Origin: an uncultured Verrucomicrobiales bacterium | GTDB taxonomy: Bacteria > Verrucomicrobiota > Verrucomicrobiia > Limisphaerales > UBA1100 | NCBI GenBank assembly: GCA_913041895.1 | Contig: CAJWKQ010000001.1 | Location: 1-49,547 of the forward strand | Length of the DNA stretch: 49,547 nucleotides | Reading direction: 5' to 3' | Part shown: one piece after another, positions 9,351-40,047 of the stretch | How the letters are laid out: the number at the start of each line of letters is the position of its first letter | Position numbering within the stretch: position 1 is the stretch's first letter | The notes under the pieces: model-generated | Databases searched by the model: none | Told to the model about the DNA's origin: nothing | What the model saw: only the letters and a program-made list of their open reading frames with translations | Program-made: the position numbers and the translations under genes

Positions 9351-9382
9351 TGGCCTCAAGCTACCACGACGAGCCCAAACCC

Positions 9383-18226: not shown

Positions 18227-19837
18227 CTATTTCTTTTCATTGGCCCCACCCAAGGTAACACTGATTTTGTATTTGCTTTGGAGATGGGCATGAGCGCGGC
18301 TTGCCTGACTAGTCTTGGGATAAAGCTTACAGGTTTGCTGGAACCATTTAATGGCATTCTCACGTGCGCCAGATTGCTCATATGTTTCTGCTATCTGTTT
18401 AGTAGCTTCTGGAGCTGAACTCTTATCCGCTCGCGCCTGATGATATAAGACCAACGCCTCCTTATATTGCTTTAAACGGCGATGGCATGAAGCCATTGCA
18501 AAATATACACTGGGATACCTATCAGACTGCCGATAACTCTGAATGGCCTCTTTTAGGCGTCCGCTCCGTTCATAGCAATCAGCTATCCCCCAATACCAGT
18601 CACCAAATTTCCCCGCTTCCACAGTAAGTAGTATTTGGTAAGCAGCAATCGCTTTATCCCATTGTCCAGCCTTTCGCCAGACTCCAACAATCGACTGTTG
18701 CCATTGACCTTCTTTATCTTTGTCCATTCCAATGAGTTGATTATATATGTTAACCGATTCCTTCCACTTTTTTTCCTCGTACCACGAATTCGCGATTGCT
18801 GCCAATCCTGCTTCTCGGTTCTTATACTGACTGTAAATCCTCCGAGCTTCGTCGTAACGCTTTCGGCTTCGGTGCCAGGAAGCTTGTTTGCCCCGAAGCC
18901 CATCATCGACCCCAATCAACTTGCCTAAAGTCTCATAAGCCGCTAGCCCCTCATTATCCCGGCGAGCATTGCCGTGTATAGCGGCTATTGTATAGTAATA
19001 GTCACGAGTTAACGAAATGTTGGCATCTTTGGTGAAATCCTGTGGGATCTGTTCCAAGATATAGGAAATGAGTTCATCAGCCAATTTTGTGCCAGTTGGT
19101 GACTTTTCTTGACTACCCGTTAGGGAACTGATCGGACTCGAGGCGTATCGGTATAACTGACTGATCAAGCTTTTACCTTTATATGTCGTTGCAAATGCTT
19201 TGAATGCATTTTGAAAATCGCCCGCATAAAAATGGTGCTGACCGAGGTAAATAGAGGCATGGGTTGTCTGATAATTGTTTTCTTTTGTTCGTTTGGTTTT
19301 GTAAGTCAAATCTTCCCAAATTTTAACCCGCTTTACCGTATCTTTACGAATACGGTAAACCTCAGCTAACTCCCATTTAGATAACACGCTCGTTTGGTGT
19401 TTGGGATGGGTGGTAATCGCCTGAATATATGCCTTCTCGGCATTCTGCAGTTCTCCTGCAGATTGATAACTACGACCTATAAGGTATCCGGACAACATGG
19501 CCTCATGTGAATCAGGCCAATAATCGATAACCGACTGAAATCCATCCCTTATAGCCGTATAAACCCTTCGTTGTTTAACCAGACAGTGGCTCCACATCAA
19601 CTGAGCATACGGAGCGGCCAAGCTTCTTTCATACAAAGTAAGAAATTTCTCGTACTCAGAAGCCGCAATCTTGTATTCGCCCTTGACATAAAATTTCTCG
19701 GCAACTTTCAGCTGGAACCGCTCTACTTCCCGCATTTTTGCAAATGTCTCCACCGGAATTTGTTCCAGATAACCCAACTGTGCGTAAACCGAAAAAGAAC
19801 ATACCAGTACTACTAGAGCCGATAACCTTATCTTCAT
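18227..19837 (-). CDS. secreted TPR-repeat protein (last gene of the ExbBD-linked operon)
   Basis: 536-aa ORF with the signal peptide MKIRLSALVVLVCSFSVYA. TPR-like helical repeats run throughout (..Y..A...Y..). Its ATG overlaps the stop of the upstream gene (ATGA, 19834-19837). Confidence 0.8.
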   Translation of the reverse strand: MKIRLSALVVLVCSFSVYAQLGYLEQIPVETFAKMREVERFQLKVAEKFYVKGEYKIAASEYEKFLTLYERSLAAPYAQLMWSHCLVKQRRVYTAIRDGFQSVIDYWPDSHEAMLSGYLIGRSYQSAGELQNAEKAYIQAITTHPKHQTSVLSKWELAEVYRIRKDTVKRVKIWEDLTYKTKRTKENNYQTTHASIYLGQHHFYAGDFQNAFKAFATTYKGKSLISQLYRYASSPISSLTGSQEKSPTGTKLADELISYILEQIPQDFTKDANISLTRDYYYTIAAIHGNARRDNEGLAAYETLGKLIGVDDGLRGKQASWHRSRKRYDEARRIYSQYKNREAGLAAIANSWYEEKKWKESVNIYNQLIGMDKDKEGQWQQSIVGVWRKAGQWDKAIAAYQILLTVEAGKFGDWYWGIADCYERSGRLKEAIQSYRQSDRYPSVYFAMASCHRRLKQYKEALVLYHQARADKSSAPEATKQIAETYEQSGARENAIKWFQQTCKLYPKTSQASRAHAHLQSKYKISVTLGGANEKK

Positions 19838-21510
19838 TTTTTATCTTCCTTTTTTCGAGATTGAAGCCATTTGCTGTATTCTGCATGAGCGTAGAGAATG
19901 ACATTCCCGCCCAGTCTATAACAAGCCTCATAAATTTGACCCGGCACACCTGCATGACCATCGGCCCATGCATCCCCAATATCACCGGGATGATAATAAG
20001 CAACCATGCGACTTTCAACCACCCAGCCATAAGCAACTCTTCCACCGTGCGGAGCAACAATCGGCAGAAATGGCATCCCATTGTGCACCGGATGATCCAA
20101 CGGAACCTTGATCGGCTCCACCCCTGGCAAAACCTGCCGCATCAAACTAAAAAACTGGCTGTGCCAATTGGAACTACCGCCATTATCTGCAAAAAGCATA
20201 CCGTGCTTATCAGTAAGATATTCACGCAGAACCTCCTTATCCTTGGATGAAATACTTCCCAAGGATTTTTGACCCGTCATGTATACTAGGGGGGGGCTTT
20301 TGCCGATTGGAAAATTTTTCAACTGGTTGATCGTGCGTACCTCCGGTTTGGGGGCAGTTTCGTGTCCTGTGTTAGCTGAATACCATAGGAGCATATTTAA
20401 GTCAGAGTGAAGATCCAAATCCTGATCCCAGTCACCTCCAGCGTACTTGAGACGGATAAACCGCACCTTCCCTCGCTTGGTTCCGCCGGCAAACCCAGCT
20501 CCTTTCCCTTCGCCGTGGCCCGGCTTATAGACATGCTTAGTCAGCTCCAATAGCTGGAGTTTAATTTTCTCTATAGGGGGAGGATTAAACAAAATAGCAC
20601 TGTAAGGGTTTATTACATACTTCTTTTGGATAACTTTTTTTATCTTCACTATCTTTTGCTTCAGCATCTCTTCACCACCACCAGCTGGCAGTTCATAAAC
20701 CTCCCGGCATCCACTCAAGCTAAGAATCAACATCACCATACAAACAAATATAATCGTGTAACTGAAAATGGCATTAAACGATTGTTTCAGCTTTTGCCTA
20801 CTCTTACCATAATACCACGCATCCTGATCAAACGGGTCCCAAGGCTTTATCGCCGGAATAGCCACTGATTGATTCATGGCCTCCAATGGCCCCACCTGAC
20901 CCAGCATCTTTTGTTTACCAGCATAACGCTGTCGTTGCAGTTTCCGAGAACGTCGCTCAACCCCCCACACCACCCATAAAAGCCCACTAATAAAGGCCAA
21001 ACACATACCTCCCTGTGCACACGCAATACGCACCTTTACCCACCCTAAATAATTAGCCCCAAATACCAATCCCTGCCAAATCGGGTAAATACTAATTGTC
21101 AATGCCAACCAATACGTCCAAACAGGCCAATCTCTTTGTTGTTGTTCGACCCTAAAGGTAAAACACACTACCAAGGCCACCGTCGAGCTAGTCGAAAAGA
21201 AAATCAAGAGACCCTGTTCATTTAGATCACTGGCAAATGCCCATTGAATCCAAAGGCCAACCCAAGCGATCCCAAAAGTAACTAAAAATACACCAAGGTA
21301 GATCACAAGACCGGAATTCAAATCTGTTCCGCTAATTTTGTTTCGCAATTTACTCCGCCATAAAACCTCCGTAAGAATTATCCCAAAAAAACCCATCACA
21401 CCTACCCAAAAAGGCCAATCTCGAATAAGGACAGCCTCCACAATTAAGCCGACCCAACAGAACCCCATGAAGAGCGCCCACAAGACCGGAATTTGACGCC
21501 ACTGGCCCAT
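19834..21510 (-). CDS. polytopic membrane protein with a C-terminal DUF4159 domain
   Basis: 558-aa ORF. About 6 hydrophobic helices lie in residues 1-190, and one more (FSYTIIFVCMVMLILSL) follows. Then comes VRFIRLKYAGGDWDQD ... PLVYMTGQKSL..S.KDKEVLREYL..HGMLFADNGG, which matches the DUF4159 pattern as I remember it. Its ATG shares one nucleotide with the upstream TAA stop (21510). Confidence 0.7.
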   Translation of the reverse strand: MGQWRQIPVLWALFMGFCWVGLIVEAVLIRDWPFWVGVMGFFGIILTEVLWRSKLRNKISGTDLNSGLVIYLGVFLVTFGIAWVGLWIQWAFASDLNEQGLLIFFSTSSTVALVVCFTFRVEQQQRDWPVWTYWLALTISIYPIWQGLVFGANYLGWVKVRIACAQGGMCLAFISGLLWVVWGVERRSRKLQRQRYAGKQKMLGQVGPLEAMNQSVAIPAIKPWDPFDQDAWYYGKSRQKLKQSFNAIFSYTIIFVCMVMLILSLSGCREVYELPAGGGEEMLKQKIVKIKKVIQKKYVINPYSAILFNPPPIEKIKLQLLELTKHVYKPGHGEGKGAGFAGGTKRGKVRFIRLKYAGGDWDQDLDLHSDLNMLLWYSANTGHETAPKPEVRTINQLKNFPIGKSPPLVYMTGQKSLGSISSKDKEVLREYLTDKHGMLFADNGGSSNWHSQFFSLMRQVLPGVEPIKVPLDHPVHNGMPFLPIVAPHGGRVAYGWVVESRMVAYYHPGDIGDAWADGHAGVPGQIYEACYRLGGNVILYAHAEYSKWLQSRKKEDKK

Positions 21511-22196
21511 TAATCAATTTTTAACTCACCCAGAGGATCATCGTTATTTTCAAATGGATTTACCTCTACAGGCTTACCCGTTTTTTCTGTATTTACCCCC
21601 AAGACATCGGGAGGATTTACAGCTGGCACTGTTGGAGTCTTGTCAGAAGGATTAACGTTGGCTTCTTTACCATTCATATCGGACTCCAATGTCTTGCTAA
21701 TGGATTCCAGCTTATTCAACATTTTTTTCTGAGCTTCAACGGCCTTCACTTCGGCCCCTTTTTTAACAATACCATATGTGTAGGGTGCAACTGTTAGAAC
21801 TACGAGGAGCAAAAAAATGATACCCGAGGACACTAAGGTACTTAAAACCAATGAACTCTGCGCAACCGCCCCAAGCATTTCACGTGGTGTTTTACCACGC
21901 ATTTCTCGCATAAATGTGCGCAACTCATCAACAGTGACAGAGCTATTTTGCTTAACGTTCTTTAAATCGCGAGAAATACTAGCCATCGATTGCAGCCCTG
22001 ATCCGGCGCTTTCTGGATCAAGGGATACTGCATCGGGAAGTTTTGCAAACAATTCAACGGTGCTCCATTTCTCATCACCTTCACGCAGAGCAGGTGTATC
22101 GGGCTGGATTTGACCTGCCTTTAATAATCCCCTCAACTCACTGGAGGTCAACGGTCCGCGCTGCTCTCCATCAATCACTACGAATATATTGTTCAT
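21510..22196 (-). CDS. GYF-domain (GYF_2/DUF4339-like) single-pass membrane protein in the TonB position
   Basis: 228-aa ORF. The N-terminus IFVVIDGEQRGPLTSSELRGLLKAGQIQPDTPALREGDEKWSTVELF is GYF_2-like. One TM helix spans about residues 112-139. The ~85-aa C-terminal tail has a Pro-containing stretch (KTPTVPAVNPPDV) but no recognisable TonB C-terminal domain. Its ATG overlaps the ExbD stop (ATGA, 22193-22196). Confidence 0.65.
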   Translation of the reverse strand: MNNIFVVIDGEQRGPLTSSELRGLLKAGQIQPDTPALREGDEKWSTVELFAKLPDAVSLDPESAGSGLQSMASISRDLKNVKQNSSVTVDELRTFMREMRGKTPREMLGAVAQSSLVLSTLVSSGIIFLLLVVLTVAPYTYGIVKKGAEVKAVEAQKKMLNKLESISKTLESDMNGKEANVNPSDKTPTVPAVNPPDVLGVNTEKTGKPVEVNPFENNDDPLGELKID

Positions 22197-22600
22197 CTCT
22201 GTTTATATTCCTCCAATATGTGGTGCAACTCTCCTCCTGCTTCGCTGATGGCCTCAATGACGGGTTCAAAATATACAGCTGTCACTTCGTGATGCACCTT
22301 CAGCAACACAGTCCGCCTGCCTGCAACGTTCTCGCCTAAAATAACCTTTAACTCTTCAGATAAAGTAGAAATGGGAATTTCCCGACCATTCAAGTGCGTC
22401 ACGTTGTATTTATCAATCACTACACTCGCGTTCATAGTGGCAGGCCTCACCAATTCAACCCCTTCGGCAGGCTTCCATTGCAAGTGACTATCATCACGTG
22501 CACGCGCCAGAATTACGAAGAAAATTAGTAATAAAAAAGCTATATCCCCCATTGCCATTGCGGGCACCGAAGCATTCATCTGTCTGCGTTTGACAATCAT
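22193..22600 (-). CDS. exbD: biopolymer transport protein ExbD/TolR (paralogue 2)
   Basis: 135-aa ORF. The TM helix carries the conserved Asp (MGDIAFLLLIFFVIL). The periplasmic domain resembles ExbD. There is an ATGA overlap with the upstream exbD. Confidence 0.85.
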   Translation of the reverse strand: MIVKRRQMNASVPAMAMGDIAFLLLIFFVILARARDDSHLQWKPAEGVELVRPATMNASVVIDKYNVTHLNGREIPISTLSEELKVILGENVAGRRTVLLKVHHEVTAVYFEPVIEAISEAGGELHHILEEYKQR

Positions 22601-23019
22601 TGGACCTGTACCGTTTGTTCTTCCTCAAGTTGCAATGTGATCACCCCTCCGGCATCTTCAATAATACCTGTAATATCCATCCAATGACTGTAAGGAACTT
22701 CCTTACGACTTTTTACTGCTACAATCTTGTCTTCTTCGCGTGCTTTATCTGCCAACTTAAGGATAATCGTTTTAACAAAGGTTTCCTTTGGAAGAGGGTT
22801 TCCATTCATTATCACTGCATCCCGAGTTAGCTCTACTTCTATATTCTGGCTTTGCTTGTCTTTTTGTGGCTCCGGTTCACTACGAGGCAGAGTCTGGGCC
22901 CTGCCTTTATCAGGCTCCACCGAAGCGCAAACCAAAAAAAACACAATGAGAATAAAGGCAATATCACTAGTCGCACTAGCTGGCGGCTCAACCAATAATT
23001 TTGTCCGTTTCAGTTTCAA
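22597..23019 (-). CDS. exbD: biopolymer transport protein ExbD/TolR (paralogue 1)
   Basis: 140-aa ORF. The TM helix carries the conserved Asp (TSDIAFILIVFFLV). The TTG start overlaps the ExbB TGA stop (cTTGAaa at 23016-23019). No in-frame ATG lies near the N-terminus. Confidence 0.82.
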   Translation of the reverse strand: MKLKRTKLLVEPPASATSDIAFILIVFFLVCASVEPDKGRAQTLPRSEPEPQKDKQSQNIEVELTRDAVIMNGNPLPKETFVKTIILKLADKAREEDKIVAVKSRKEVPYSHWMDITGIIEDAGGVITLQLEEEQTVQVQ

Positions 23020-23876
23020 GATTCAGGTTTATCTTCTGAATTCAATGTTAATTGCAGAGTAACCGCCTCCATCAATTCTGCAGCGCTTTCCTCTACCTCC
23101 AGCACAAAATTATTTATCACACTAGAAAAATAATTAAACGCCATAAAGGCCGGGATCCCCACCATGAGGCCGAAACACGTCGTTAAAAGAGCCACTTCAA
23201 TCCCTGCGGCAGCTGCCTGAATAATATTGCCTCCACCTGTCTTATCCATTTCCACAATATTATGAAACGCTACAATCATTCCCTGAACAGTGCCGAGAAA
23301 CCCAAGCATCGGCGCAACACTCGACACGATGGCCAATACTGGTAAATGACGCTCTAATGCAGCTACGATGTGAACCCCATAGCTTTCCATGCTCTTAACC
23401 ACCTGTTCTTCCAATCGTGCCGGATCATAATTAAGCCGACTCAAAACCAAATACTTTCGTAACCCATTGGCCAAAATGGCAGCAACCGGCCCGCGCTCCC
23501 TATCACACCGCGCCAAGGCATCTTCAATACGGTCGTTAGTCAGGTCTTCTAAAACAGCCTGACGCAAGGCCTCATTATCAGTATCCAACATCTTGAGGCT
23601 GCGCCATCTTTCAATAATTACAGCCAAAGCCAAGATAGCCATAATTAAAATGGGCCACATAAAAATCCCACCATCAATCAGCAAACCAATGGCCCCTGAA
23701 TCAAAAAATTCTGCAACTGCAGAAGGCTCAGAAGCCGCCTCTAGAGCCTCCTCATTTAAAGCTTCAGTGTTCTGATCCGGATTTGCTTCTGAAGGACCGT
23801 CATTGGTTCCCGATGAATTAGTGGATGCCGCATTTACCTCTGAGATATTAGTCACTTGAGCAAAAAACGGTAACAT
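23016..23876 (-). CDS. exbB: MotA/TolQ/ExbB proton-channel protein
   Basis: 286-aa ORF. A ~55-aa acidic, low-complexity N-terminal extension precedes three TM segments. The signature APMLGFLGTVQGMIVAF is present. Confidence 0.88.
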   Translation of the reverse strand: MLPFFAQVTNISEVNAASTNSSGTNDGPSEANPDQNTEALNEEALEAASEPSAVAEFFDSGAIGLLIDGGIFMWPILIMAILALAVIIERWRSLKMLDTDNEALRQAVLEDLTNDRIEDALARCDRERGPVAAILANGLRKYLVLSRLNYDPARLEEQVVKSMESYGVHIVAALERHLPVLAIVSSVAPMLGFLGTVQGMIVAFHNIVEMDKTGGGNIIQAAAAGIEVALLTTCFGLMVGIPAFMAFNYFSSVINNFVLEVEESAAELMEAVTLQLTLNSEDKPES

Positions 23877-23923
23877 TTAACTATAAGCCTTTTGATTCCG
23901 AAACAGGTTGTGAAATGGATACA

Positions 23924-26900
23924 TCAATTATCATCGTCTATGGAATTAGCCTCACTCTCAAATTGGGCCAACATTTCAGGTAAAGCCAAACGACCTCTTG
24001 CATATTTGGCAGCCTCGCTTTCAGGAAAGTCCCACCGACAGCGATTATACCTACGAAAAGCAAATGAAACATTGTTAGCCCCTCTGAAACTTTCCCCAGC
24101 CCAAAAGAGAGACTGAGCAGTCAGTCCGTCATCCGGAAACTTCTTGGTAAACAAATCGAAAACCACTCCTGCCTCGGCAAACTTTTCAGCCTTGTAATGG
24201 CATTGGCCCCACCGGAAACACATTTTTGGAGCAAATTCATGATCCGCAAATCGATCCATAAATTTTTCAGCAACTTTTGCTGCCACCGCATAATTCTCAC
24301 GTTTGTAGAAATACTCATTTATTCGTATCATTACATTGGGAATCAAGGGGCTCTTTGGATAGGTTGCAGCTAAAGTGACGTACTCCTCTAAAGCACGATC
24401 AAAGTCATTAGCCTCTTCATAACACTGGGCCAGCTTATACTGTGCATCAGCTGCTAGGGTATGATTCGGATATTGTCTCACGATTAATGCATAGCTGTTA
24501 GCTGCCGCATTCCAGTCCTGCAATTCTTGGGAAAACTGTCCGCTAAGATAAGCAATTCGAGGCAAGTATTTTGGGTCTGGATAATCAACCATGATCTCTT
24601 TGAGAATACGGCGCCCCGCCTTCAAAGCCTTTTGGCTCTCATCTTTTCTCTCCAGTTTAAGGTTATTTTTAAACAACTCAAAATAGCTTTCAGCGATATG
24701 AAATTGCGTTTGGACGGCCAGCTGCTGATTGCCAAATATTTTGCTAAATGCCGAAACAATACCGTCCGTTCCTATAGCAACAGGCAGTTCAATTGTATGA
24801 TCACCAGACGTCTCCACATCCCTCGCGGACTCATCCGAGTACTCAGCAGTAATTTTATCACCAAAGAAACATTCAATCTCCTTATCAATCTCACTAAAAT
24901 TGGCCGGTGTTGGCTTTTCCCGAGCTTTGAGCTCAAATGAGCCGGTAAATATCCCGCTGTGACTTAAGGTCTCATTGAGTTTCACTGATTCCTTTTCTCC
25001 ACTTTCGCTTTGAATAACGATGCTTGAAAAATCCCGCTCATCAGAAATGTCCAAATCTGGATCTGCAACCATCACAAAAAGCTTTTCTCCAACATGCAAT
25101 ATTTCAACTTTTTCATCATAACCCTCATTGGTAACAGATAGACTCCCATTTGTTTTTAATACAGCCTGATCAGATAAATCCAGCTCCTCTCCTCCTGGGC
25201 GCACCTTATCTTGATAGGATGCATTCAAAATCGATTTACCATTTACATTTAGCACAGTATCTAACAAATCATCTCCATTCTGTTCCTCTTCTTCTTCACC
25301 AGCAGGACGCACTCGACCAATCAACCCATTGCCACTACCCAAGCCGCGCGGCAGTTTTACGGGACTCCCTTCTCCTCCCAGTTGCATTTTAACCTGCCCC
25401 ACAAACCTTCCCATTCGTAATGCAGGGTTTGCCTGACCTTCATCAGTTCCTGAAAAATCTCCAAACTGCGTAGAAAGTGTACAGATAACTTCAACTGCAT
25501 TAGTCGTTCCAGCATTAATTAAAACCTTAACCTTACTTAAACTATCCTTTGCAGCATCTGGATCAATGACTTCAACAGTCAATGGAACAAAATAATCGAC
25601 ACCAACAGGACCTTCCTGTCCTTCCATTCGACGAAGATAGACCGGCTGAGGTAAACCCTCTGAACCCGCTGGCGGCTGTGTGCGGCTCGTGCCAATGATG
25701 CGCACCAGTCCTTCAGTAGGTTCATTGGCAAAAACCACTCCTTCGCGAACCACCGAATGCCCTGGAAAAGTGTTTTGCAAATCTGAATATCGGCAAAAAA
25801 TACTGTCACCTGGCTTGATTCGAAGTTTGTCAGTCTCTTCTAAAGTTGAGGTCTCCACTTCGACACGAAAAATCCCGGAATATTCCTCAGTCTCCGTAGC
25901 CTCCATATTCTTCCATTTGTTCCCGTTTAGCCAAATTTCCACAGGCACAGTATCGCGCTGATCAGTTTGATCCATGTCATAATCAACCACCTCAAAGGTA
26001 ATCCGATCTCCCGCATCCACTCTAAGCAACTCCTTACGAGTCTGAGCAACGCCACCTCCTGAATTTCTAGCGAAATCAAACCCTATAGGCACCACCCGGG
26101 CATCATTGTAAGTTGCCTGCAGGTTTTGAGTGAGCAACCGGCTGCCTCCCTTGGTCGCCACTGCAGTTTCATCAGTGTAACTAGCAAGAACCACGTCTCC
26201 CCCAGCAATTTCCAGCGTCTTATTCTCTGCAAGCTTACTGACGTCCACCTCGGTAGGAATGAAAACACTATTCTTATTTGCCACCTCAATATGATTAACC
26301 GCAACCGAATCTCCAAGATATTCATCTATCTGAAAACGTGCATAACGCAACTGGATAGGCTTAAAAAAGAACTCCCACTCTCGGTCACGCTGTATCACTC
26401 CTGCTCCTGAAGCCGGGCGCAACTCGATGCCGGACAAATCCATAAGGACAGCTCCCACAATTTCCAATGGTTTAATGGTAAGGATTTGTGATCCCGCCGC
26501 ATCAACCTGCACCAATCCCACCCGTTGCCAAGCAAAACGGTGAGGGTCACCGGTTTTTTGCACCGTTGCCTCTATCATCTGATCTCCGAATTCCAAACGG
26601 AACAGTGAGCCTCCCTCGATATGCGCTGAATTCACCCAAACCTCATAAGCACCGGGTTGTTGGGCATTAAAGGCCCATTTGAGCCAATCACCAGGCTTTT
26701 GCCAATGATGAACCCTTTTAACCTTATTTAGTTCACCAGCAGCAAACTCCTCCGTTTCCTTTTGCAACTCCACCTTATCTAAATCCATCACCAATGTTGT
26801 AGCTTTGGAACCATTTCTCTCAGGCTCATTACCAAAATATTTCTTGGCTGCCTCAAGGTCGAAATCAGCCTTATTAAAAGGTTTCAATTGGGGCTGTGCA

Positions 26901-29900
26901 CTACTTGAATTGGCCCGCGCACGAGTAGCCGAAAGACCAGATGACCCTTTTTTTGCCGCGGCAAAAATCGTAAGGTCATGGATGCCTGCAGTTAGCCATA
27001 CATCCACTTGTTTGATTTCACTGGATGGAGCTAGCTGAACCTTTCCATCCACAGCCACAGCCACTAAATCACCCTTTACTCCGATACGCACCGCCCCTTC
27101 ACGCGGCTGGATCAACTTTCCGGCCCATATTGCCGCAACCGGTTTGACACCATTTTCATCCCCTTCTTCCGGGTTCCAGGATAACTCTAAAACCTCATTT
27201 GTAGTCGCCTGTGTTGTACGCGCCAATCGGGCAACTTGCGCCCAAGTCGTGTATGAGGTATGGTCCCCCTTGTAGATCATTTGTTTCATCACTCCGGACT
27301 TTTCCAAAACAGTCTGCGCGTCTTGAATTCGAGGCTGAGCTGCCAAGGTAAACCAAAAGACCCCATCATGACTGCCTAACAACCGTCCTCGTACTGGAGC
27401 ATGGTCTCCCGCATTAGGCGTATTTATTCTTATTCTCGAAATCTCATGAAGTTGCTTCATGTCAACGGTTAAAGCCTTTGGTGTTTGACCATCTGGCTCA
27501 CTCTGCCAGTAGGATTCTCGACTATGATCTATTGCCATCAACGGATTGTGGTCAATGGCACTATCGGAAGCGGAAGCACCCGCTGGAAGTTCAGCAGTCG
27601 GAATAGCTGCACGAAACTCCCCGGTATGCGGCCCGGTTTCCTTTAATTCCACCTGCACCTGATCACCACTATCCGCCCTTAATGTCACCGTTAAGAGATC
27701 TTCTTGATCTCCAAAATCCCGATCCTTATCGCGAATACGTAGAAAAATCCGGTTACCTGGCTTCACCTCATTTGCAGGCCTGCCTTGAGAAACGCGCCTG
27801 TCCTCCTCAGCTTCCTCTTTTTGTTCCCTTTCGAGCTGTTTAGTCAGAGTTTCCTCTTCTTTATCAACGATCTCACTACTGGCCACATCAAACTCCCCAT
27901 CTGCAGCCACACGAATCTCGACGTCACTTAAGGGAACAGTTCTAAACTGCTTTTTAAAATCATCTGGATAATCACTCAAAATGACATCCTTTCCAGTTAT
28001 CTGTAAAACACCATCCTCAGGAGCTACAGAACCCAATCCCGTATCTATCTCTCCTCTAAATAGCCCTTTACCTGCGCCAGAACTACTCCGCAACAAGACC
28101 TTCTCTCTATCACCCCCTGGCTTTGTCGTAACAATAACCGGAATGGTATTTTGCCCGCGGCTGACACCTAAATCTCGATCGTGAACTACAATCGATAAAG
28201 CATTTCCGGGAATATGAAGCCTTTTACTGCTTTGGCCCAATCGACCAACGGTACGTAGTAAATTTAATTGCTGAAGATACCGTTGTTCGAGCCCATATAT
28301 TTCCGACAAGCTAAAAAGAGTGCGATTGGCCAGCTCCACATCGGGCACACGTTCTAGAATATGTTGAAACTTTTCACGAGCTTCATCGCGTTGATCCTGA
28401 CGAAACGCCAATAAGCCTGTTAAAAACTCTGCTCGAATGGAAATTTGCTGATCAGGATTTTCCTCGAGCACCTTAAAAGCCTCTGCGGCTTTATCATAAA
28501 TCTTTTGCGCCATGAAAGACTCTCCAATACCAAACTTGGCCTCAATGGCATGAGGCGTCCCACTATAGCGGTTAGTTACCGTAGAATACTCTACTCGAGC
28601 CACATCAAATCGCTGCCCTTTGAAGTAACTCTTGGCCAAGAGAAGCTGTAAGCGCGCCTTTGCATCTTCACTTTGTTGTTTACTCTCGGGCTTTTCAGGA
28701 TCGGTAAACTTGATGAGCCAACCCCTCAAAATATCTTCCACAGCTGTCAAGCGCTCCTCATCCCCGCCAGTCATAAGATAGTTGCAAACGAACTCAATCA
28801 GGTCGGGCGGAAGGTCATTGCGGTGTTTTTTAAATAACTCCACATTTGACTGATATAATTCCAAAGCCTTCTCACGGTCCCCCAAACGGAGGTACAAGGC
28901 TGCCTGCAACAGAGGCGCCATCGGACTATCTTCGTCAATTGTCAAACCTACCGCACCCATTCGGGAATGTGCCCTTAAGACAGCACTACGACCTTCGCTC
29001 TTGCTTTCCTTTGATACACTAGATACATGCGCCAGTGCACCGGTCAATAATGTCGCACTCTCCATATACCTTTCCTGTTCAAACGCCTTTTGTGCATAAC
29101 TACGGAAAGTATTCCAGCGATTCTGGTCGTTATGAGTATACTTGGTAGCCCTAAAGAGGCGCTGCAAACGGGCTACAGGCAACTCCTTATCAGCACCGCC
29201 TCCCAATAAATGGTCACAAGCCGCCCATGCAGAATAATCAGAACCTCTTAAATCCTGAATAGCCTGATAGACTGAAAGCTTTTGACCATCATCCAGCTTT
29301 TTGAAATTCTTGTAGGCTGGATTATCCCCTTCTGTATAAGTCTTATTGTTTAGAGCGAACTCCCTCCAAGTCCCAGCAAATCCCCGCCAGTCCTCATTTA
29401 CAAAAGGTAAATCCGAAGCCGTCTGCTGGATCTGAGTGATAGCTCTGGAAAAACCAGCTGCATCCCCTTGTAATCGTAAAATATCAGTAGCCTTGTGAGC
29501 CGCCACTCGAAGAGTTAACTCCGGCCAGCGATTCTCTACATGTTCGCGCCATGTTGCAGGAGGATTTCCTCCGTTAACCAAAAAGCGTTCAGCACAGGTT
29601 CGCTCCTCTGACCGCCCTTGTGTAGGCATCTGGGAAATTCGCTTCCACCAGTCCAAAGCCTGTTTTTTTTGATTCAATTTCCACAATACATCGCCGGTGT
29701 AATCTGCATAAATTGAGCTCAAATCTCCCTTGATAGCCCATTGATATATCTGGTTAGCAAGATTGGCATCCTGAAGACGTTCGGCCACCTGCATTAAGTC
29801 TCGTTGAAAAGAATAATTAACCCGACCTTTGGCTGGCGGCATGCGCAAAGCTTGTTGCACAATCTTCTTGGCCTCACTTTTATCTTCATCACTGCCACCC

Positions 29901-31873
29901 ATGTATAATGATAAAAACCCGTGAGCCGCATCATGATTCTTGGGATGTTTTTGCCATAGCGTTCGAGCTATAGCGCGAGCAGTCACAGGATCCTTCTTCT
30001 TGACATAGGCAACCAGCGCATGCCTTTGAGTTCCAACTAAACGCAACTGATTCGCGGAACTCAAACTATTAAACTGCTTCAATGCTTCTGCACGAAGCGG
30101 AACGGCCTTAGCTGGATTATCTTGTGGGCGGGGATATTTCAGCAACGCCTGAACCAATGACTCTCTATTCTGAGCGGCCAACTGATCGCCCACAAACTTG
30201 GCTTTAGCACGTTGATCCTTGTTGCTCTTCATCGAAGAAACCCAGTTGCTGACATAATCCCGATAATAGGTGGTCGTCAGATAATCGCGCCGCTCTTTAA
30301 GCAGCATTGCAACATCCTTACGAAACTGATCACCATCTGGCTGACCAGTAAGTAAATCATTAATGAGGGTCTGCTGATTAGAGCTATACAAATGAGTTTC
30401 TCTGGAAACTTCACGCGCATGAGCAAGCGCTTTGGCCTCATCCTTCACGCGTTCACGGTAGAGCGTACGCGACAAGGCATAGCGCAAAGCCAGAATAGCA
30501 CCATAATTCTTAGATGCCTTAGCCTTACCGACAGCTGTATTTAAAGCACGATCGGAATCGGTCACTTGTTTGCGAAATTTAGCCTCTGCATCACGAGCTG
30601 AAGCTTGCGCCTTTTGCAACTCTTGTTGTCGCTGCTGAACCAGTTTAGTCGCCTCAACCAAAGCTGTCTGGGCAGCTTTCCTAGCCTCTGGACTACCTGC
30701 TTTATTGAAAGTATCACGCTTGGATTTTTCATCAGTCTTCGCATTTTCGAGATTCTTTTGGGCTTCAGCTTGAGCGCTCACAGCCTTGCCTCGGGCAGCA
30801 TTAGCCTCATCCACCATCCAAAGAACGTAATAGTAGGCCATATTCCCGGAATTGGCTGCGTTAGCCAAAGCTGGCTGAATCGATCCGGCAGCTAAAGTGG
30901 GGTTATTTTCACGTGCATGAGCATGGCCTACATACAAAAGAACCTCCCACCTTCGTCGATCATTTGGGAATTTAGCCGCCATACCTCGTGCTTCACTCTC
31001 GATTTGTTGAGGCTTCAAGCCTGCGTTATGCATGTATGATATTTGTGCTGCATAAAGAGCGGAATCGTCCTTAAAGCTGCGCGCCTTTCGCATACTTTCC
31101 ACTGCATTGGCCCATTGACTTTGTGAGGCGTAACTTTGCGCCATTAAATGATGCAGTTCGAACTGCTGGGTGCGGTTTAATGGCAAACGTTTTTGAATTA
31201 GTTTTTGCGCAGCTTGATTAGACTCTGCCCAACGCGAAATAGCCCTGTATTCGGTAATTGCCCTAAACCCCGCCCGTACGGTGTAGGGACTGGCTGGAAG
31301 CTTTTCCATCATGCTCCCACACAGCTCAGCCGAACGAATTCTCAAACGAGTATTCCCTTCCTGCCCGTAAAGCTCAGAAGCCCTTTCGGCGGCCTTACGG
31401 TTACCGACCCCAGGTTTGTGTTCCCACAAAAGCCGCAACACATCTGCCGCTTGGGATCGTTTACGATCACGCTCCAATCCATCAGAGACACGCAAAGCAA
31501 CATCAAGGGCTTCAGTTGAATCCGGATAACGAGTAAGATACTGCCGGCCTATGGTTATAAGCTCATCTCGTCGCCCCATGATCTCCAGCCCATCGACCAA
31601 TTTCAACATTACCTGACGATGCTGGGCGTGACGGCTTTGAGCCTTCACAAAACGCTCAGATACTCGCACCAAACCAAACACACGCCCCTCATTATAATAC
31701 AAGTCCACGAGCTCAATCATGACCTTCGCCCCCTCTACAGAGGTGTCGAGCGACTTGTTCAATTGAGCTTCAAGAGCCGTAGCCTTTTTATCGATAGCAC
31801 TCGGCTCATTCTTGTCCACAGCCATTGAAAGCAATGGCATGAGTAATAGAAAAATAGTTATTGGTTTTATCAT
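23924..31873 (-). CDS. secreted giant (2649 aa) TPR / beta-module / TPR protein
   Basis: A single uninterrupted ORF with the signal peptide MIKPITIFLLLMPLLSMA. An all-helical TPR-like region of about 1210 aa spans 31873 to ~28230. A beta-rich region of about 1160 aa (~28225-24740) contains discoidin (F5/8 type C)-like, PA14-like and CBM-like stretches plus repeated acidic modules. The C-terminal ~270 aa are YbgF/CpoB-like TPRs (LIVRQYPNHTLAADAQYKLAQCY, LAATYPKSPL, FTKKFPDD). Confidence 0.85.
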   Translation of the reverse strand: MIKPITIFLLLMPLLSMAVDKNEPSAIDKKATALEAQLNKSLDTSVEGAKVMIELVDLYYNEGRVFGLVRVSERFVKAQSRHAQHRQVMLKLVDGLEIMGRRDELITIGRQYLTRYPDSTEALDVALRVSDGLERDRKRSQAADVLRLLWEHKPGVGNRKAAERASELYGQEGNTRLRIRSAELCGSMMEKLPASPYTVRAGFRAITEYRAISRWAESNQAAQKLIQKRLPLNRTQQFELHHLMAQSYASQSQWANAVESMRKARSFKDDSALYAAQISYMHNAGLKPQQIESEARGMAAKFPNDRRRWEVLLYVGHAHARENNPTLAAGSIQPALANAANSGNMAYYYVLWMVDEANAARGKAVSAQAEAQKNLENAKTDEKSKRDTFNKAGSPEARKAAQTALVEATKLVQQRQQELQKAQASARDAEAKFRKQVTDSDRALNTAVGKAKASKNYGAILALRYALSRTLYRERVKDEAKALAHAREVSRETHLYSSNQQTLINDLLTGQPDGDQFRKDVAMLLKERRDYLTTTYYRDYVSNWVSSMKSNKDQRAKAKFVGDQLAAQNRESLVQALLKYPRPQDNPAKAVPLRAEALKQFNSLSSANQLRLVGTQRHALVAYVKKKDPVTARAIARTLWQKHPKNHDAAHGFLSLYMGGSDEDKSEAKKIVQQALRMPPAKGRVNYSFQRDLMQVAERLQDANLANQIYQWAIKGDLSSIYADYTGDVLWKLNQKKQALDWWKRISQMPTQGRSEERTCAERFLVNGGNPPATWREHVENRWPELTLRVAAHKATDILRLQGDAAGFSRAITQIQQTASDLPFVNEDWRGFAGTWREFALNNKTYTEGDNPAYKNFKKLDDGQKLSVYQAIQDLRGSDYSAWAACDHLLGGGADKELPVARLQRLFRATKYTHNDQNRWNTFRSYAQKAFEQERYMESATLLTGALAHVSSVSKESKSEGRSAVLRAHSRMGAVGLTIDEDSPMAPLLQAALYLRLGDREKALELYQSNVELFKKHRNDLPPDLIEFVCNYLMTGGDEERLTAVEDILRGWLIKFTDPEKPESKQQSEDAKARLQLLLAKSYFKGQRFDVARVEYSTVTNRYSGTPHAIEAKFGIGESFMAQKIYDKAAEAFKVLEENPDQQISIRAEFLTGLLAFRQDQRDEAREKFQHILERVPDVELANRTLFSLSEIYGLEQRYLQQLNLLRTVGRLGQSSKRLHIPGNALSIVVHDRDLGVSRGQNTIPVIVTTKPGGDREKVLLRSSSGAGKGLFRGEIDTGLGSVAPEDGVLQITGKDVILSDYPDDFKKQFRTVPLSDVEIRVAADGEFDVASSEIVDKEEETLTKQLEREQKEEAEEDRRVSQGRPANEVKPGNRIFLRIRDKDRDFGDQEDLLTVTLRADSGDQVQVELKETGPHTGEFRAAIPTAELPAGASASDSAIDHNPLMAIDHSRESYWQSEPDGQTPKALTVDMKQLHEISRIRINTPNAGDHAPVRGRLLGSHDGVFWFTLAAQPRIQDAQTVLEKSGVMKQMIYKGDHTSYTTWAQVARLARTTQATTNEVLELSWNPEEGDENGVKPVAAIWAGKLIQPREGAVRIGVKGDLVAVAVDGKVQLAPSSEIKQVDVWLTAGIHDLTIFAAAKKGSSGLSATRARANSSSAQPQLKPFNKADFDLEAAKKYFGNEPERNGSKATTLVMDLDKVELQKETEEFAAGELNKVKRVHHWQKPGDWLKWAFNAQQPGAYEVWVNSAHIEGGSLFRLEFGDQMIEATVQKTGDPHRFAWQRVGLVQVDAAGSQILTIKPLEIVGAVLMDLSGIELRPASGAGVIQRDREWEFFFKPIQLRYARFQIDEYLGDSVAVNHIEVANKNSVFIPTEVDVSKLAENKTLEIAGGDVVLASYTDETAVATKGGSRLLTQNLQATYNDARVVPIGFDFARNSGGGVAQTRKELLRVDAGDRITFEVVDYDMDQTDQRDTVPVEIWLNGNKWKNMEATETEEYSGIFRVEVETSTLEETDKLRIKPGDSIFCRYSDLQNTFPGHSVVREGVVFANEPTEGLVRIIGTSRTQPPAGSEGLPQPVYLRRMEGQEGPVGVDYFVPLTVEVIDPDAAKDSLSKVKVLINAGTTNAVEVICTLSTQFGDFSGTDEGQANPALRMGRFVGQVKMQLGGEGSPVKLPRGLGSGNGLIGRVRPAGEEEEEQNGDDLLDTVLNVNGKSILNASYQDKVRPGGEELDLSDQAVLKTNGSLSVTNEGYDEKVEILHVGEKLFVMVADPDLDISDERDFSSIVIQSESGEKESVKLNETLSHSGIFTGSFELKAREKPTPANFSEIDKEIECFFGDKITAEYSDESARDVETSGDHTIELPVAIGTDGIVSAFSKIFGNQQLAVQTQFHIAESYFELFKNNLKLERKDESQKALKAGRRILKEIMVDYPDPKYLPRIAYLSGQFSQELQDWNAAANSYALIVRQYPNHTLAADAQYKLAQCYEEANDFDRALEEYVTLAATYPKSPLIPNVMIRINEYFYKRENYAVAAKVAEKFMDRFADHEFAPKMCFRWGQCHYKAEKFAEAGVVFDLFTKKFPDDGLTAQSLFWAGESFRGANNVSFAFRRYNRCRWDFPESEAAKYARGRLALPEMLAQFESEANSIDDDN

Positions 31874-31891
31874 TTACTGTTGCATCAAAGA

Positions 31892-34267
31892 TTAAAATCC
31901 GGATTTGGCTAAAGCTTGGGAAATGCGCTTGGCTTCTGGTGCAAGTTGACTCTCAGGAAATTCATCGATCAATTGATCGAAGCGCTTACGTGCCTCAGCA
32001 CGACGGTCTAGCCGAAACAAACACCGACCGTAGTTAAAGAGAATTACATCTAGAAAATTTGCATCTGGATGGTCAGAAAGAACTTTTTCAAAAACATCGA
32101 CTGCCCGCCCATAGTCTTTCTTTTGATAATAGAAGCTGGCCATTTTTGCCACCGCATCACCCACTCTTCCGCTTTCGGGATGTTGGTCAAATACCATCTT
32201 GTAAGCCTGAAAGGCACGTTCATACATTTGCTCAGCATTTCCTCGCGCAGCCTTGGCCATATCTTCATAACATTCCCCAATTCCATACTGCCCTTCCCCG
32301 CGCAGTTGACTTTTAGTCAAACGGGTAAGATTCGTATATAAGGCAATCGCCCGGGCAAAGTCGCCTGACTTCTGTGCAACACGAGCCTGTTGCAAAATGG
32401 CCTCGTCCAAATAGATGCTTTCAGGAAATTCACGCTGCAACCTAAGGCTCATTGCGGCAGCTAGATTGAGTCGATCCATGGCGAAATAAATCCGCCATAA
32501 TTGGACATACGTTTCCTCGAGTAACCCGCCGCCAATCTTGCGCGCTTCAGCAGCAATTTCCTCGCAAACGCCCAATGCCTCCTCGTATTTCCGCTGAGCC
32601 TTATCATCCAGTCCAAAATCCCGATATTGTGTTCCTATTTGAGTCAAAGCACTGGCAGTTTTTAATTTGGTTTTTAATGCCAATTCCGCATCTCCAATTT
32701 CAGTGCGAGTCACTCGGACCCCCCCTAGATTACCTTCAACACATTTGGCTGCTGCAAACAGATCACGGGGACCAGCAGAAATATTAAGAGCATCCTGATA
32801 GCTCACCCGAATCAAATCACCAGATTGAGCCTGCAGCTTGGCATCATCATTCACAACGTTGGACTCAGACTCTACGGGTATTGTGCCACGAAAAAGTCCC
32901 GTATGAATCGTCCCATCCTTCTGCTCCTGATTAATCTCTTCAACCAAATCATCACCTAATCCTGGAGTCTTGGCTGTCTGCGCAGGAGGCTCGGCAGGAG
33001 TATCTTCAGGCTCCCTCTGTCCCGAATCTACAGGTTTAGTAATAACTTTTTCCTCAGGTTTCTTTTCGGACTCCTTCAAGATCATTTCCACTGTATCCAC
33101 GACCTTGAACGGGTCGACTTGCACTTGTTCCTCAACTGGCTCAACTCCCGGAACAACCGGTGCAACAGGTTTCTCCACTGGAGCTGGAGACACAATTGCT
33201 CCTTCTGCAATGAGTTTTGCCTTTTCTTCTTCTATTTCTACAGGAGTTTTTTGTCGGAGCACCTGCACTTTGACTTTTATAACGTCTGATTTATCACTGA
33301 CATCACGATCAGCATCGCTGACTTGAATGTTTGCTTCCTTGCCCAATACGACCCCCTGAAGTGCTTCAGAAAATGCTCCGTCCATTACCTGAACCAATGC
33401 GTTCCCGACCACAGTCACTGCTTTTTTACGATCCACATTAAAAGCACGGTCTGCTGTATGAGAGTCCACGTAATCAACCTGAACCTTAGCCGTGCCAGTC
33501 ACTTCAATGATCCCATTACCTTTTCTGGCCTTGCCTAGTCTTGTGGGGATAGAACCTAAAACCACTCGAACATTACGACCCACCGGAAGACATTCAACGG
33601 TTTCCTCATCTCCCTGAGAAGTTCGCACCTTAATGGGCACTGTTTCATTTTTTTCAAGAATCGCCAAATCAGCATCCTCGATTTTTACGAAGAAACGTTT
33701 CCCTGCCTCGAGTTTTTCGGCATTCTGATCCTTCTGCCCCACAGCAGTCCCCACTTTTTCCAAGGCTGATATCGACCGGCCATAATGACCCTGTTTGAAA
33801 TGGCCAAGACCAATATAGTAATAAGCCTCATTAACCTGTTCAGCCACGGGAAATTCTTCAATCACCTTACGCATCACCTTAAAGCATTGGCCATAGTGTC
33901 TGCCTTCAAAAAGACATACGCCCATCTTCAATGTCGCTAAAGCGCGTTGTTCGGTGTCTGTGTTTTCCTCTCCAGCAACTGTTTCAAAATGAGCGCGCGC
34001 CTTGTCATAGGCATTGCCCTTGGTTAAATGATGTTCACCAAGCTTCAGGTGCGCTTGATACCTAACCTTACTGCGCGGATAACGCTCAACCACCGATTGC
34101 CAAATCTCCAAGGCTTTCTCCTGCTCCCCCGCATCATAACGCAAATCACCTGCTTGAAGGAGCTTACGTGCTGCTCGATCCTCAACAATGGAACCTCTAA
34201 CCGGAGCTCCAGCCTGAAGACTCAATGAAAGACAAAAGGCAAAGAGAATTAAAACCCTTGAAATCAT
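31892..34267 (-). CDS. secreted TPR / beta-module / Pro-rich linker / TPR protein (first gene of the operon)
   Basis: The ORF track starts at a TTG (34372). The ATG at 34267 gives the signal peptide MISRVLILFAFCLSLSLQA. YbgF/CpoB-like TPRs occur at both ends (VVERYPRSKVRYQAHLKLG; VFDQHPESGRVGDA; LSDHPDANF; LIDEFPESQLAPEA). The centre holds beta modules and a Pro/Glu/Lys/Val-rich linker. The stop lies 18 nt before the start of the giant gene. Confidence 0.8.
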   Translation of the reverse strand: MISRVLILFAFCLSLSLQAGAPVRGSIVEDRAARKLLQAGDLRYDAGEQEKALEIWQSVVERYPRSKVRYQAHLKLGEHHLTKGNAYDKARAHFETVAGEENTDTEQRALATLKMGVCLFEGRHYGQCFKVMRKVIEEFPVAEQVNEAYYYIGLGHFKQGHYGRSISALEKVGTAVGQKDQNAEKLEAGKRFFVKIEDADLAILEKNETVPIKVRTSQGDEETVECLPVGRNVRVVLGSIPTRLGKARKGNGIIEVTGTAKVQVDYVDSHTADRAFNVDRKKAVTVVGNALVQVMDGAFSEALQGVVLGKEANIQVSDADRDVSDKSDVIKVKVQVLRQKTPVEIEEEKAKLIAEGAIVSPAPVEKPVAPVVPGVEPVEEQVQVDPFKVVDTVEMILKESEKKPEEKVITKPVDSGQREPEDTPAEPPAQTAKTPGLGDDLVEEINQEQKDGTIHTGLFRGTIPVESESNVVNDDAKLQAQSGDLIRVSYQDALNISAGPRDLFAAAKCVEGNLGGVRVTRTEIGDAELALKTKLKTASALTQIGTQYRDFGLDDKAQRKYEEALGVCEEIAAEARKIGGGLLEETYVQLWRIYFAMDRLNLAAAMSLRLQREFPESIYLDEAILQQARVAQKSGDFARAIALYTNLTRLTKSQLRGEGQYGIGECYEDMAKAARGNAEQMYERAFQAYKMVFDQHPESGRVGDAVAKMASFYYQKKDYGRAVDVFEKVLSDHPDANFLDVILFNYGRCLFRLDRRAEARKRFDQLIDEFPESQLAPEAKRISQALAKSGF

Positions 34268-34422: not shown

Positions 34423-34454
34423 AAAAAGCCCCGCCTATGAAACAGCAGGGCTTT
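34423..34454 (-). terminator. intrinsic terminator after the DUF1501 gene
   Basis: The minus strand reads AAAGCCCTGCTGTTTCATAGGCGGGGCTTTTT. This gives a stem of about 11 bp (including two G-U pairs) followed by a T-run, 18 nt after the stop at 34472. It separates the DUF1549/DUF1501 unit from the TPR/ExbBD operon. Confidence 0.8.
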
Positions 34455-39258: not shown

Positions 39259-40047
39259 TCACCCTATCAATTCTTCAACTTTTGCCGCAATATTATCCAC
39301 ACGCATCAGGGATTCGCCTATGAGAACAGCCTTAGCTCCGCAAGTTTTCAAACGCTCCACATCCTCTCGGGTATGAATACCGCTTTCAGCCACTAAAAGA
39401 GTCTGATCTGCGTCCAGTTGCCCGGCCAACGACTCAGTCGTTTCAAGATCTACTGAAAATGTTTTCAGATTACGATTATTAACCCCTATCAAAGGCGCAT
39501 CAATTGCGAGTGCACGCGATAGCTCTTTTGAATCATGCACCTCCACCAGCACAGACAACCCTGCTTCCGAAGCCAAATGATGAAATCCTGAAAGCTGATC
39601 ATCATTTAGTATCGCCGCAATCAATAAAATTGCATCAGCACCCCAATCAATCGCCTCTGCAATCTGTCTTGAATCAACAACAAAATCTTTTCTCAAGAGC
39701 GGCAAATCCACTGCATCCCTAATAGCCTTTAAGTAATCAGGAGAACCTTGAAAAAACTTTTCATCGGTTAACACTGAAAGACAACTCGCTCCAGCACTTT
39801 CGTATTGATTGGCAATATCCACAGGATCGAAGTCAGCCCGGATAATCCCCGCAGATGGAGAAGCTTTTTTGACTTCAGCAATTAACCCAATATCTCCAAC
39901 GCGTGGGTTTTCCAATGCCTGCCTGAAATCCCTGACACCACCACGCTTTTCAACGGCCGTGCGCAGGGAGTCCACTGAAACCTCAAACTCCGGTAAACCA
40001 GCAAGTTCCTTCTCTTTATGCGCAACTATTTCATCTAGAATATTCAT
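39259..40047 (-). CDS. trpC: indole-3-glycerol phosphate synthase
   Basis: 262-aa ORF with [29 protein letters not shown] and IGVNNRNL. There is an ATGA overlap with the prfB stop. Confidence 0.92.

Follow-up and report, generated by a model that had tools for sequence, protein, structure and literature searches.

A conserved TolQ/TolR-type stator cluster with two candidate non-TonB partners and giant tetratricopeptide repeat proteins in Verrucomicrobiota and Planctomycetota

What does a proton-driven stator of the ExbB/ExbD type act on when neither TonB nor TolA is encoded beside it? The question is raised by contig CAJWKQ010000001.1 of an uncultured Verrucomicrobiales bacterium (assembly GCA_913041895.1), of which a stretch of 49,547 nucleotides (nt), here called the window, was analysed. 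Eight consecutive open reading frames (ORFs) on its minus strand, at positions 18227-34267, encode an exported tetratricopeptide repeat (TPR) protein (TPR-790), a giant exported protein, a TolQ/ExbB-like subunit, two TolR/ExbD-like paralogues (ExbD1 and ExbD2), a bitopic adaptor, a polytopic protein with a DUF4159 domain, and a further exported TPR protein (TPR-536). We propose that they probably belong to a trans-envelope machine of the Tol/Ton type that is driven by the proton motive force (PMF), is specific to the superphylum of Planctomycetes, Verrucomicrobia and Chlamydiae (PVC), and would act through the adaptor and the DUF4159 protein rather than through TonB or TolA. A preliminary description of the locus had suggested a dedicated machine of stator and TPR proteins without TonB, TolA, TolB, Pal or a TonB-dependent transporter (TBDT), and the co-occurrence of the genes across phyla supports this core idea.

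A stator cluster conserved across phyla

Pfam assigns one MotA_ExbB domain, two ExbD domains, a GYF_2 domain and a DUF4159 domain to the eight proteins, TPRs to three of them, and F5/8-type-C and DUF5077 modules to the giant (Table 1). Read from the sequence, the gaps between TPR-790 and the giant and between the giant and ExbB measure 18 and 47 nt, while the last five junctions all overlap (TTGA once, ATGA three times and TAATG once), and by these overlaps the two conserved inner-membrane partners, the adaptor and the DUF4159 protein, are translationally coupled to the stator genes. Shuffled sequence would give about as many terminator-like matches as the block itself contains (15.8 expected, 16 found). 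The preliminary description had listed the same eight minus-strand genes with their domains, signal peptides and transmembrane Asp, the same overlaps and gaps, and CpoB/YbgF-type repeats in the two big proteins, and had seen no terminator within the eight genes and no TonB_C, TolA_III, outer-membrane barrel, TolB or Pal in the operon or its flanks. All of this is borne out by the ORF list, the sequence and the Pfam and NCBIfam searches described here and below.

The matches of the TolQ-like and ExbD-type proteins to Pfam lie above the gathering cutoffs. The TolQ-like subunit is nearer to TolQ than to ExbB (E=4e-15 to TolQ and E=1e-10 to ExbB in the PDB), and it aligns with solved TolQ structures across all three transmembrane (TM) helices. 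In alignments of 53-69 orthologues, its Thr and P-x-LG-x-LGTV motifs are conserved, and Asp19 is invariant in both TolR/ExbD-like paralogues. Neither paralogue found a match when solved structures were searched by sequence, both being too divergent from solved ExbD/TolR. The components of a Ton/Tol 5:2 stator, a MotA/TolQ/ExbB subunit and ExbD/TolR subunits with the TM Asp, are all encoded, and the predicted products amount to a complete stator of the TolQ/TolR type in which the two TolR-like subunits differ from each other.

The partners through which such stators are known to act were not found. None of the sizeable window ORFs matches TonB_C, TolA (TolA_III), TolB/PD40, OmpA/Pal or TBDT/plug models in Pfam and NCBIfam, and among the eight proteins none matched PF03544 (TonB_C) at E<=0.01. 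Barrel domains were likewise found neither in the window nor in related loci. Nor do the related loci whose called genes were read carry a gene for TonB_C, a TBDT or Pal, and the sole PD40 gene in these loci belongs to a separate neighbouring cluster in an Opitutae relative. This second cluster (L005, 13841-22028; L006, 13841-20129) is divergently oriented, lies right after the TPR-536 homologue, and encodes a TPR protein of ~1048 amino acids (aa), ExbB, ExbD, a PD40 (TolB-like) protein of 1268-1299 aa and a 143-aa protein. Possibly this is a Tol-like system in its own right.

Close relatives of the DUF4159 protein number in the hundreds, and a scan of one genome per species placed relatives in at least 375 species genomes, of which 80 were fetched. 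The fetched carriers belong to Verrucomicrobiota (Verrucomicrobiales, Pedosphaera/Limisphaerales, Opitutia and Akkermansiaceae) and Planctomycetota (Pirellulales, Planctomycetaceae and Phycisphaerae), and one carrier contig is labelled both Omnitrophota and Kiritimatiellia. Most carriers are metagenome-assembled genomes from marine or lake water samples. The window itself is assigned to a marine member of the Verrucomicrobiales by its flanking PSCyt, PSD1 and DUF1501 genes and by its best database matches. Synteny was scored by tblastn with the window proteins, counting as informative only those loci that were long enough to judge. Gene order and strand are kept in nearly all of them: the giant is in place in 44/51 loci, ExbB in 51/56, ExbD1 in 55/59, ExbD2 in 59/63 and the adaptor in 60/65, and TPR-536 follows the DUF4159 gene in 61/66. 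The gene calls of independent assemblies show the same arrangement, and a TPR-790 homologue precedes the giant gene in the related loci that were read gene by gene. A neighbourhood survey of this kind had been proposed with the preliminary description, and by it the genes co-occur as a block in Verrucomicrobiota, Planctomycetota and Kiritimatiellia. The counts, across three phyla, rule out a fortuitous adjacency of the TPR genes and exbBD. Our literature search returned no description of this gene cluster, and in the literature searched DUF4159 is named only in the Pfam database paper. The exbB and exbD genes of R. baltica (RB12053/RB12055), possible members of this cluster, are salt-induced.

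Conservation extends upstream of the eight genes. Among loci fetched through the TPR-790 protein, a DUF1501 orthologue lies directly upstream of the TPR-790 gene and on the same strand in 56/65 informative loci, being absent upstream in the other 9/65. Where more than 4 kb of upstream sequence was available, DUF1501 and PSCyt2/PSD1 are both found there in 42/48 loci. The DUF1501 orthologues at this position are 58-98% identical, against ~30% for ordinary paralogues, and with 58-72% identity between phyla they are among the best-conserved genes of the block; the PSCyt2/PSD1 orthologues at this position share 42-97% identity. With this upstream pair conserved, the conserved unit therefore comprises ten genes. 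The preliminary description had held that a strong terminator insulates the operon from the upstream unit. A hairpin with a T-run is indeed present at 34425-34454, but it is not the boundary of the system, because the orthologous pair is conserved directly upstream in most loci. The gap between the DUF1501 and TPR-790 genes is also at least 140 nt in the related loci read gene by gene, and hairpin and gap look like an internal punctuation mark rather than the edge of the system.

DUF1501/PSCyt/PSD modules of PVC genomes have been linked to carbohydrate-binding domains, with their function stressed as unknown (PMC3542564, PMC5615132). The upstream pair has exactly the two-gene architecture of the modules described by Kamneva et al. 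2012 (PMC3542564), a DUF1501 protein with a signal for twin-arginine translocation (Tat) and a PSCyt2-PSD1 protein, with the difference that in the present loci a stator cluster is accompanied by one particular pair of orthologues. A term search of that article gave no ExbB, ExbD, TolQ, biopolymer transport or TPR, and the literature searched contained no paper naming DUF1501 together with DUF1553.

Candidate transducers and exported TPR proteins

The DUF4159 protein, which the preliminary description had overlooked in this role, is to judge from its sequence the best candidate for a force transducer. Its AlphaFold2 model, built from 92 sequences (predicted local distance difference test, pLDDT, 79.8), contains six N-terminal TM helices and a seventh (TM7) at 239-265, followed by a low-confidence linker with a predicted strand at 290-295 and by an α/β domain at 350-557. 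As modelled, it has a TonB-like three-part layout of TM helix, linker with β-strand and globular domain. The top Foldseek match of this domain, and the sole strong one, is PDB 4i66, a structural genomics entry from Haliangium (E=9e-7, TM-score 0.78), and the next matches are weak and fall on the glutamine-amidotransferase (class I) subunit of GMP synthase. The fold of the von Willebrand factor's A domain (vWA) is not among the Foldseek matches, and the modelled domain is a glutamine-amidotransferase-like fold rather than a vWA domain. The DUF4159 family profile matched none of the sequences of solved structures.

Residues Q243, Y251 and F255 of TM7 are invariant and S244 is nearly so, and the conserved residues G267 and C268 follow; the family alignment contains no conserved His or SHLS motif in this helix. 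The segment after TM7, EIYEMPAGGGE...VVKVQKVIKKKFVINP..., ranks with the best-conserved stretches of the whole chain. The end of TM7 forms a lipobox motif (L-S-G-C268; general pattern [LVI][ASTG][GAS]C), in which Gly-Cys268 is present in 92/92 sequences, position -3 is L/V/I/M in 89/92 and position -2 is G/S/T/A in 79/92. This lipobox is internal, placed after six TM helices, and a K/R-rich stretch lies ahead of TM7.

The second candidate, the adaptor, was aligned over 71 orthologues. They share a cytoplasmic helix, ELRxFLxxxRGKSPxEMLG, just before the single TM helix, a low-complexity Pro/Ala/Thr-rich stretch in the periplasmic part, and a conserved acidic peptide, LGxGExKxxxPxxNPLDxxxDDLLxxL, at the extreme C-terminus. 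No conserved His is found in the TM helix. The GYF domain is confined to one verrucomicrobial group, with none in the planctomycete, the Kiritimatiellia and many Opitutales/Akkermansiaceae orthologues, and is, judged by this alignment, an accessory of the protein. An exhaustive search of 1.84 billion representative proteins yielded 301 relatives of the adaptor, and the 150 matches listed are 84-269 aa long, so that no fusion to TonB_C or another globular C-terminal domain is seen among them. The predicted layout of the adaptor recalls that of a headless TonB.

The exported proteins are the proposed partners of these two candidates. Both the giant and TPR-790 contain TPRs of the CpoB/YbgF type (NCBIfam TIGR02795, 127.5 and 101.4 bits, respectively, with a cutoff of 90.1), and the C-terminus of the giant matches the solved CpoB structure 6g5s (E=3e-6). 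Between phyla, TPR-790 homologues share 54-59% identity, and the Joint Genome Institute names some of them 'TolA-binding protein'. Read from its start at the ATG at 34267, TPR-790 has the signal peptide MISRVLILFAFCLSLSLQAG; an 826-aa version from a TTG at 34372 was rejected, the homologues being 780-810 aa long and the signal peptide from the ATG being clean. In the giant, ~1220 aa of α-helical/TPR sequence are followed by ~1150 aa of β-sandwich array with the discoidin (F5/8-type-C) domain and by the C-terminal CpoB-like TPR. An AlphaFold2 model of residues 1230-2420 (pLDDT 83.1) is almost wholly β, and Foldseek matched this region to S-layer proteins and to α2-macroglobulin/complement-type multi-domain β-sandwich proteins with low TM-scores. 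These matches are only generic, so no functional inference was drawn from them. The β-array together with the discoidin domain suggests contact with wall or glycan material. When the isolated β-modules of the giant and TPR-790 were searched against Pfam, only F5/8-type-C and DUF5077 were found. A β-module ending in '[ST]GxFxG' is repeated in the giant (~1417 and ~2306) and in TPR-790 (~455 in the 791-aa numbering, 491 from the TTG); it matches no Pfam family and has weak matches only, to the S-layer model of anammox Kustd1514.

Proposed mechanism and alternative explanations

The cluster belongs among the envelope systems with a 5:2 motor, and by its components it is neither a Ton, a Tol-Pal nor an Agl-Glt system. 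Like the Ton system, it has a MotA_ExbB and ExbD stator, and exbD is followed by the gene for a bitopic protein whose periplasmic spacer is rich in Pro. However, TonB has the TonB_C domain and a conserved His in its TM helix, whereas the adaptor has neither and no TBDT is linked. The likeness to Tol-Pal lies in the TolQ-like subunit, which is closest to TolQ, in the TM Asp of the TolR-like subunits and in the CpoB/YbgF-type TPR modules. In contrast to Tol-Pal, two different TolR paralogues are present, TolA, TolB and Pal are not found, and the CpoB-like TPRs are domains inside proteins of 791 and 2649 aa, not a CpoB orthologue.

The nearest precedent, although of a different family, is the 'vWA force transducer' cluster of PVC bacteria, which in Tichowtungia aerotolerans comprises genes for a TPR protein, a TolQ-like protein, two heterologous TolR-like proteins and the vWA transducer (Mol Biol Evol 2025, PMC12204202). 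In the passages of that article on these clusters, non-TonB transducers are predicted next to TPR-tolQ-tolR-tolR genes in PVC bacteria, the vWA system is given as a prediction with no phenotype reported, and the motor box is described as a β-strand in the disordered linker of TonB, TolA and the predicted vWA transducers that contacts ExbD/TolR. The two kinds of cluster occur in the same superphylum and share the TPR, the one TolQ-like and the two different TolR-like genes; these are followed by genes for proteins that are anchored in the membrane and have a flexible linker and, in the periplasm, a globular domain other than that of TonB. The vWA transducer crosses the membrane once, by a helix with SHLS/His35, and ends in a vWA domain, whereas the DUF4159 candidate has seven TM helices, a lipobox and no conserved His; the small acidic-tail adaptor, the giant and the DUF1501/PSD1 pair are not found in the passages on the vWA clusters. 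Pfam detected neither VWA nor DUF4159 in the Tichowtungia transducer sequence, which we reconstructed from the supplement of PMC12204202. Homology of the DUF4159 protein to the vWA transducer was rejected, as hhalign against Tichowtungia transducer 2 aligned only 17 columns, in the Lys-rich strand, with E=0.14. With no significant similarity between the two, the block described here is hence of a sister design rather than the same system.

In the mechanism that we propose, a TolQ-like pentamer would enclose the two TolR-like paralogues, paired as a heterodimer, and form a 5:2 proton-driven stator, the proton flow of which would move the DUF4159 protein, the adaptor, or both. These two predicted inner-membrane partners are encoded directly downstream of the stator genes. 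The invariant face of TM7 in the DUF4159 protein would be followed by a conserved Lys-rich β-strand in the flexible linker, which resembles the motor box of TonB/TolA, and the linker would end in the globular periplasmic α/β domain, while the extended Pro/Ala linker of the adaptor would present the conserved acidic C-terminal peptide. Both proteins may engage the three exported TPR proteins. Since TPR domains bind C-terminal peptides and CpoB binds TolA, the acidic peptide of the adaptor could plausibly dock onto the C-terminal CpoB-like TPR modules. The β-sandwich/discoidin array of the giant could reach or scaffold the wall or the outer membrane, and the machine probably has the PSCyt2/PSD1-DUF1501 pair as its client or partner in the periplasm. 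As to the output, our best guess is that it maintains or tethers the envelope, ahead of an energised handling of periplasmic glycans through the DUF1501/PSCyt pair.

Several observations weigh against this mechanism. The SHLS/His motif by which TonB and TolA bind the stator is lacking in both candidate transducers, the motor-box assignment hangs on a single predicted strand within a low-confidence region, and the sole profile match to the published vWA transducer, of 17 columns, is not significant. The lipobox raises the possibility that LspA could cleave the DUF4159 protein and release its domain as a free lipoprotein, which would alter the mechanics. The DUF1501 pair is set apart from the remaining genes by the terminator-like hairpin and by 140 nt or more of intergenic sequence. 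Finally, three loci from Pirellulales/Planctomycetaceae (L001, L052 and L063) have the ExbD-ExbD-adaptor-DUF4159-TPR half without ExbB or the giant upstream, and in L063 the PSD1-DUF1501-TPR-giant half comes after the ExbD-to-TPR half, with those four genes still together. Some genomes thus carry the block divided or rearranged.

A wider claim, which we put forward as tentative, is that the cluster represents a third trans-envelope force-transduction system beside Ton and Tol, specific to the PVC bacteria, in which a 5:1:1 TolQ/TolR-like motor would pull on the lipobox-bearing seven-TM DUF4159 transducer and on the peptide-tailed adaptor, both of which would dock into giant TPR/β-sandwich scaffolds, and in which the PMF would be coupled to the exceptionally well conserved PSCyt2/PSD1-DUF1501 pair, a pair that comes from families greatly expanded in PVC genomes. 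If true, such a system could supply outer-membrane tethering in Pal-less Planctomycetes or TonB-independent periplasmic macromolecule handling; Planctomycetes are reported to be without Pal in the supplement of PMC12204202. The cluster offers a genetic handle on what 5:2 proton motors do without an attached TonB/TolA, on the role of the DUF1501/PSCyt/PSD families, which are abundant in PVC genomes (PMC3542564, PMC5615132), and on how Planctomycetes organise or energise their outer envelope. Being widespread, strongly conserved and compact, it is experimentally approachable in a tractable planctomycete or verrucomicrobium.

Among the alternatives, the PSCyt2/PSD1-DUF1501 pair could itself be the business end of a PMF-energised periplasmic processing or uptake system, acting on glycans caught by the discoidin/β-sandwich array of the giant, for example in TonB-independent macromolecule handling. 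The strong conservation of the DUF1501 orthologue between phyla, the F5/8-type-C and DUF5077 modules of the giant, and the published link of PSCyt/PSD/DUF1501 modules to carbohydrate-binding domains (PMC3542564, PMC5615132) are consistent with such a role. We consider it rather unlikely, given the hairpin and long gap between the pair and the other genes, the loci in which the pair is absent upstream (9/65), and a block that contains no transporter or outer-membrane channel.

TtpD-type TPR genes adjoin some exbBD-tonB clusters, which provides a parallel for an ordinary Ton/Tol stator whose TonB/TolA and outer-membrane partners are encoded elsewhere, and for which the genes of the TPR proteins, the adaptor and the DUF4159 protein would be either accessories or unrelated bystanders. 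This is quite improbable when the same seven to ten genes travel together in three phyla with 4-nt overlaps, and when the slot after exbD, the usual place of tonB, always holds the adaptor and DUF4159 genes. The lack of TonB_C, TBDT and Pal in the loci whose called genes were read and the divergence of both ExbD paralogues from solved ExbD/TolR argue in the same direction, although the absence of TonB is known from loci rather than from whole genomes, a second TPR-ExbB-ExbD-PD40 cluster stands next door in the Opitutae relative, and Verrucomicrobia carry TBDTs and other TolQ/ExbB-ExbD sets (PMC5615132, PMC13274419).

The preliminary description had also compared the layout to the Agl-Glt machinery of Myxococcus. 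One TolQ-like with two TolR-like subunits, as in AglR/Q/S, and TPR-rich periplasmic components are indeed common to both, and so is a GYF-bearing inner-membrane protein in the window. However, the GYF domain is not family-wide, and the Glt barrels (GltA/B/H/K), the TonB_C proteins (GltG, GltJ) and the cytoplasmic partners or platform are not found in this cluster. The GltJ model matches only the GYF region of the adaptor (model 150-202, E=7e-4), with 18.8 bits against a cutoff of 450. With GYF restricted to a verrucomicrobial subset and no barrel encoded, the likeness therefore comes down to subunit count and TPR-rich partners, and it is an analogy, not homology. A gliding or surface-motility machine of the focal-adhesion kind, with the adaptor in the place of GltJ and the TPR giants in that of GltD/E/C, is on this evidence, and with carriers that come mostly from marine or lake water, scarcely credible.

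Gene layout and neighbouring observations

Table 1. Features of the ten-gene unit in the window, listed in the order of transcription
Feature	Position	Strand	Basis or context
PSCyt2/PSD1 (DUF1549/DUF1553) exported protein, 708 aa, CAQCH haem-c motif	35762..37888	minus	Pfam, signal peptide, motif
DUF1501 protein, 420 aa, Tat signal (MTRRRMLG)	34472..35734	minus	Pfam E=8e-104, Tat motif
Intrinsic-terminator-like hairpin, 11 bp and T-run	34425..34454	minus	Within the 204-nt DUF1501/TPR-790 gap
TPR-790, exported protein of 791 aa; TPRs of the CpoB/YbgF type at either end, β-rich middle	31892..34267	minus	
Giant exported protein, 2649 aa; helical/TPR region, β-sandwich array and discoidin domain, C-terminal CpoB-like TPR	23924..31873	minus	
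TolQ/ExbB-like stator subunit, 286 aa, three TM helices	23016..23876	minus	Pfam MotA_ExbB
TolR/ExbD-like paralogue 1 (ExbD1), 140 aa, TTG start, invariant Asp19	22597..23019	minus	Pfam ExbD
TolR/ExbD-like paralogue 2 (ExbD2), 135 aa, invariant Asp19	22193..22600	minus	Pfam ExbD
Bitopic adaptor, 228 aa; N-terminal GYF_2, cytoplasmic helix, TM helix, Pro/Ala-rich linker, acidic C-terminal peptide	21510..22196	minus	
Seven-TM protein with predicted periplasmic C-terminal DUF4159 domain, 558 aa; lipobox at TM7 end	19834..21510	minus	
TPR-536, exported TPR protein, 536 aa	18227..19837	minus	Pfam, NCBIfam

Downstream of the cluster, an FGE-sulfatase/PSCyt1 protein with a CVGCH motif and a signal peptide is encoded at 16666-18108 on the minus strand. 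Its gene begins 118 nt downstream of the TPR-536 gene, and the intervening sequence contains no terminator-like site. A 91%-identical relative (L009) has the two genes side by side as well; more distant loci do not.

Elsewhere in the window, the release factor 2 gene (prfB, ORF 40044-41066) contains a classical programmed +1 frameshift site (41109-41181, minus strand). Its short leader in frame 0 begins at 41181 and closes with GGAGG TTT CTT TGA C (CTT at 41115-41113, TGA at 41112-41110), and the mechanically called ORF of release factor 2 is without its N-terminus because of this frameshift. The tryptophan-biosynthesis genes are scattered and do not form one operon, with a trpB-like gene and trpF at 8148-10006 and trpC at 39259-40047 on the minus strand. 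The trpC gene overlaps prfB on one side and a gene for a response-regulator/SpoIIE phosphatase on the other.

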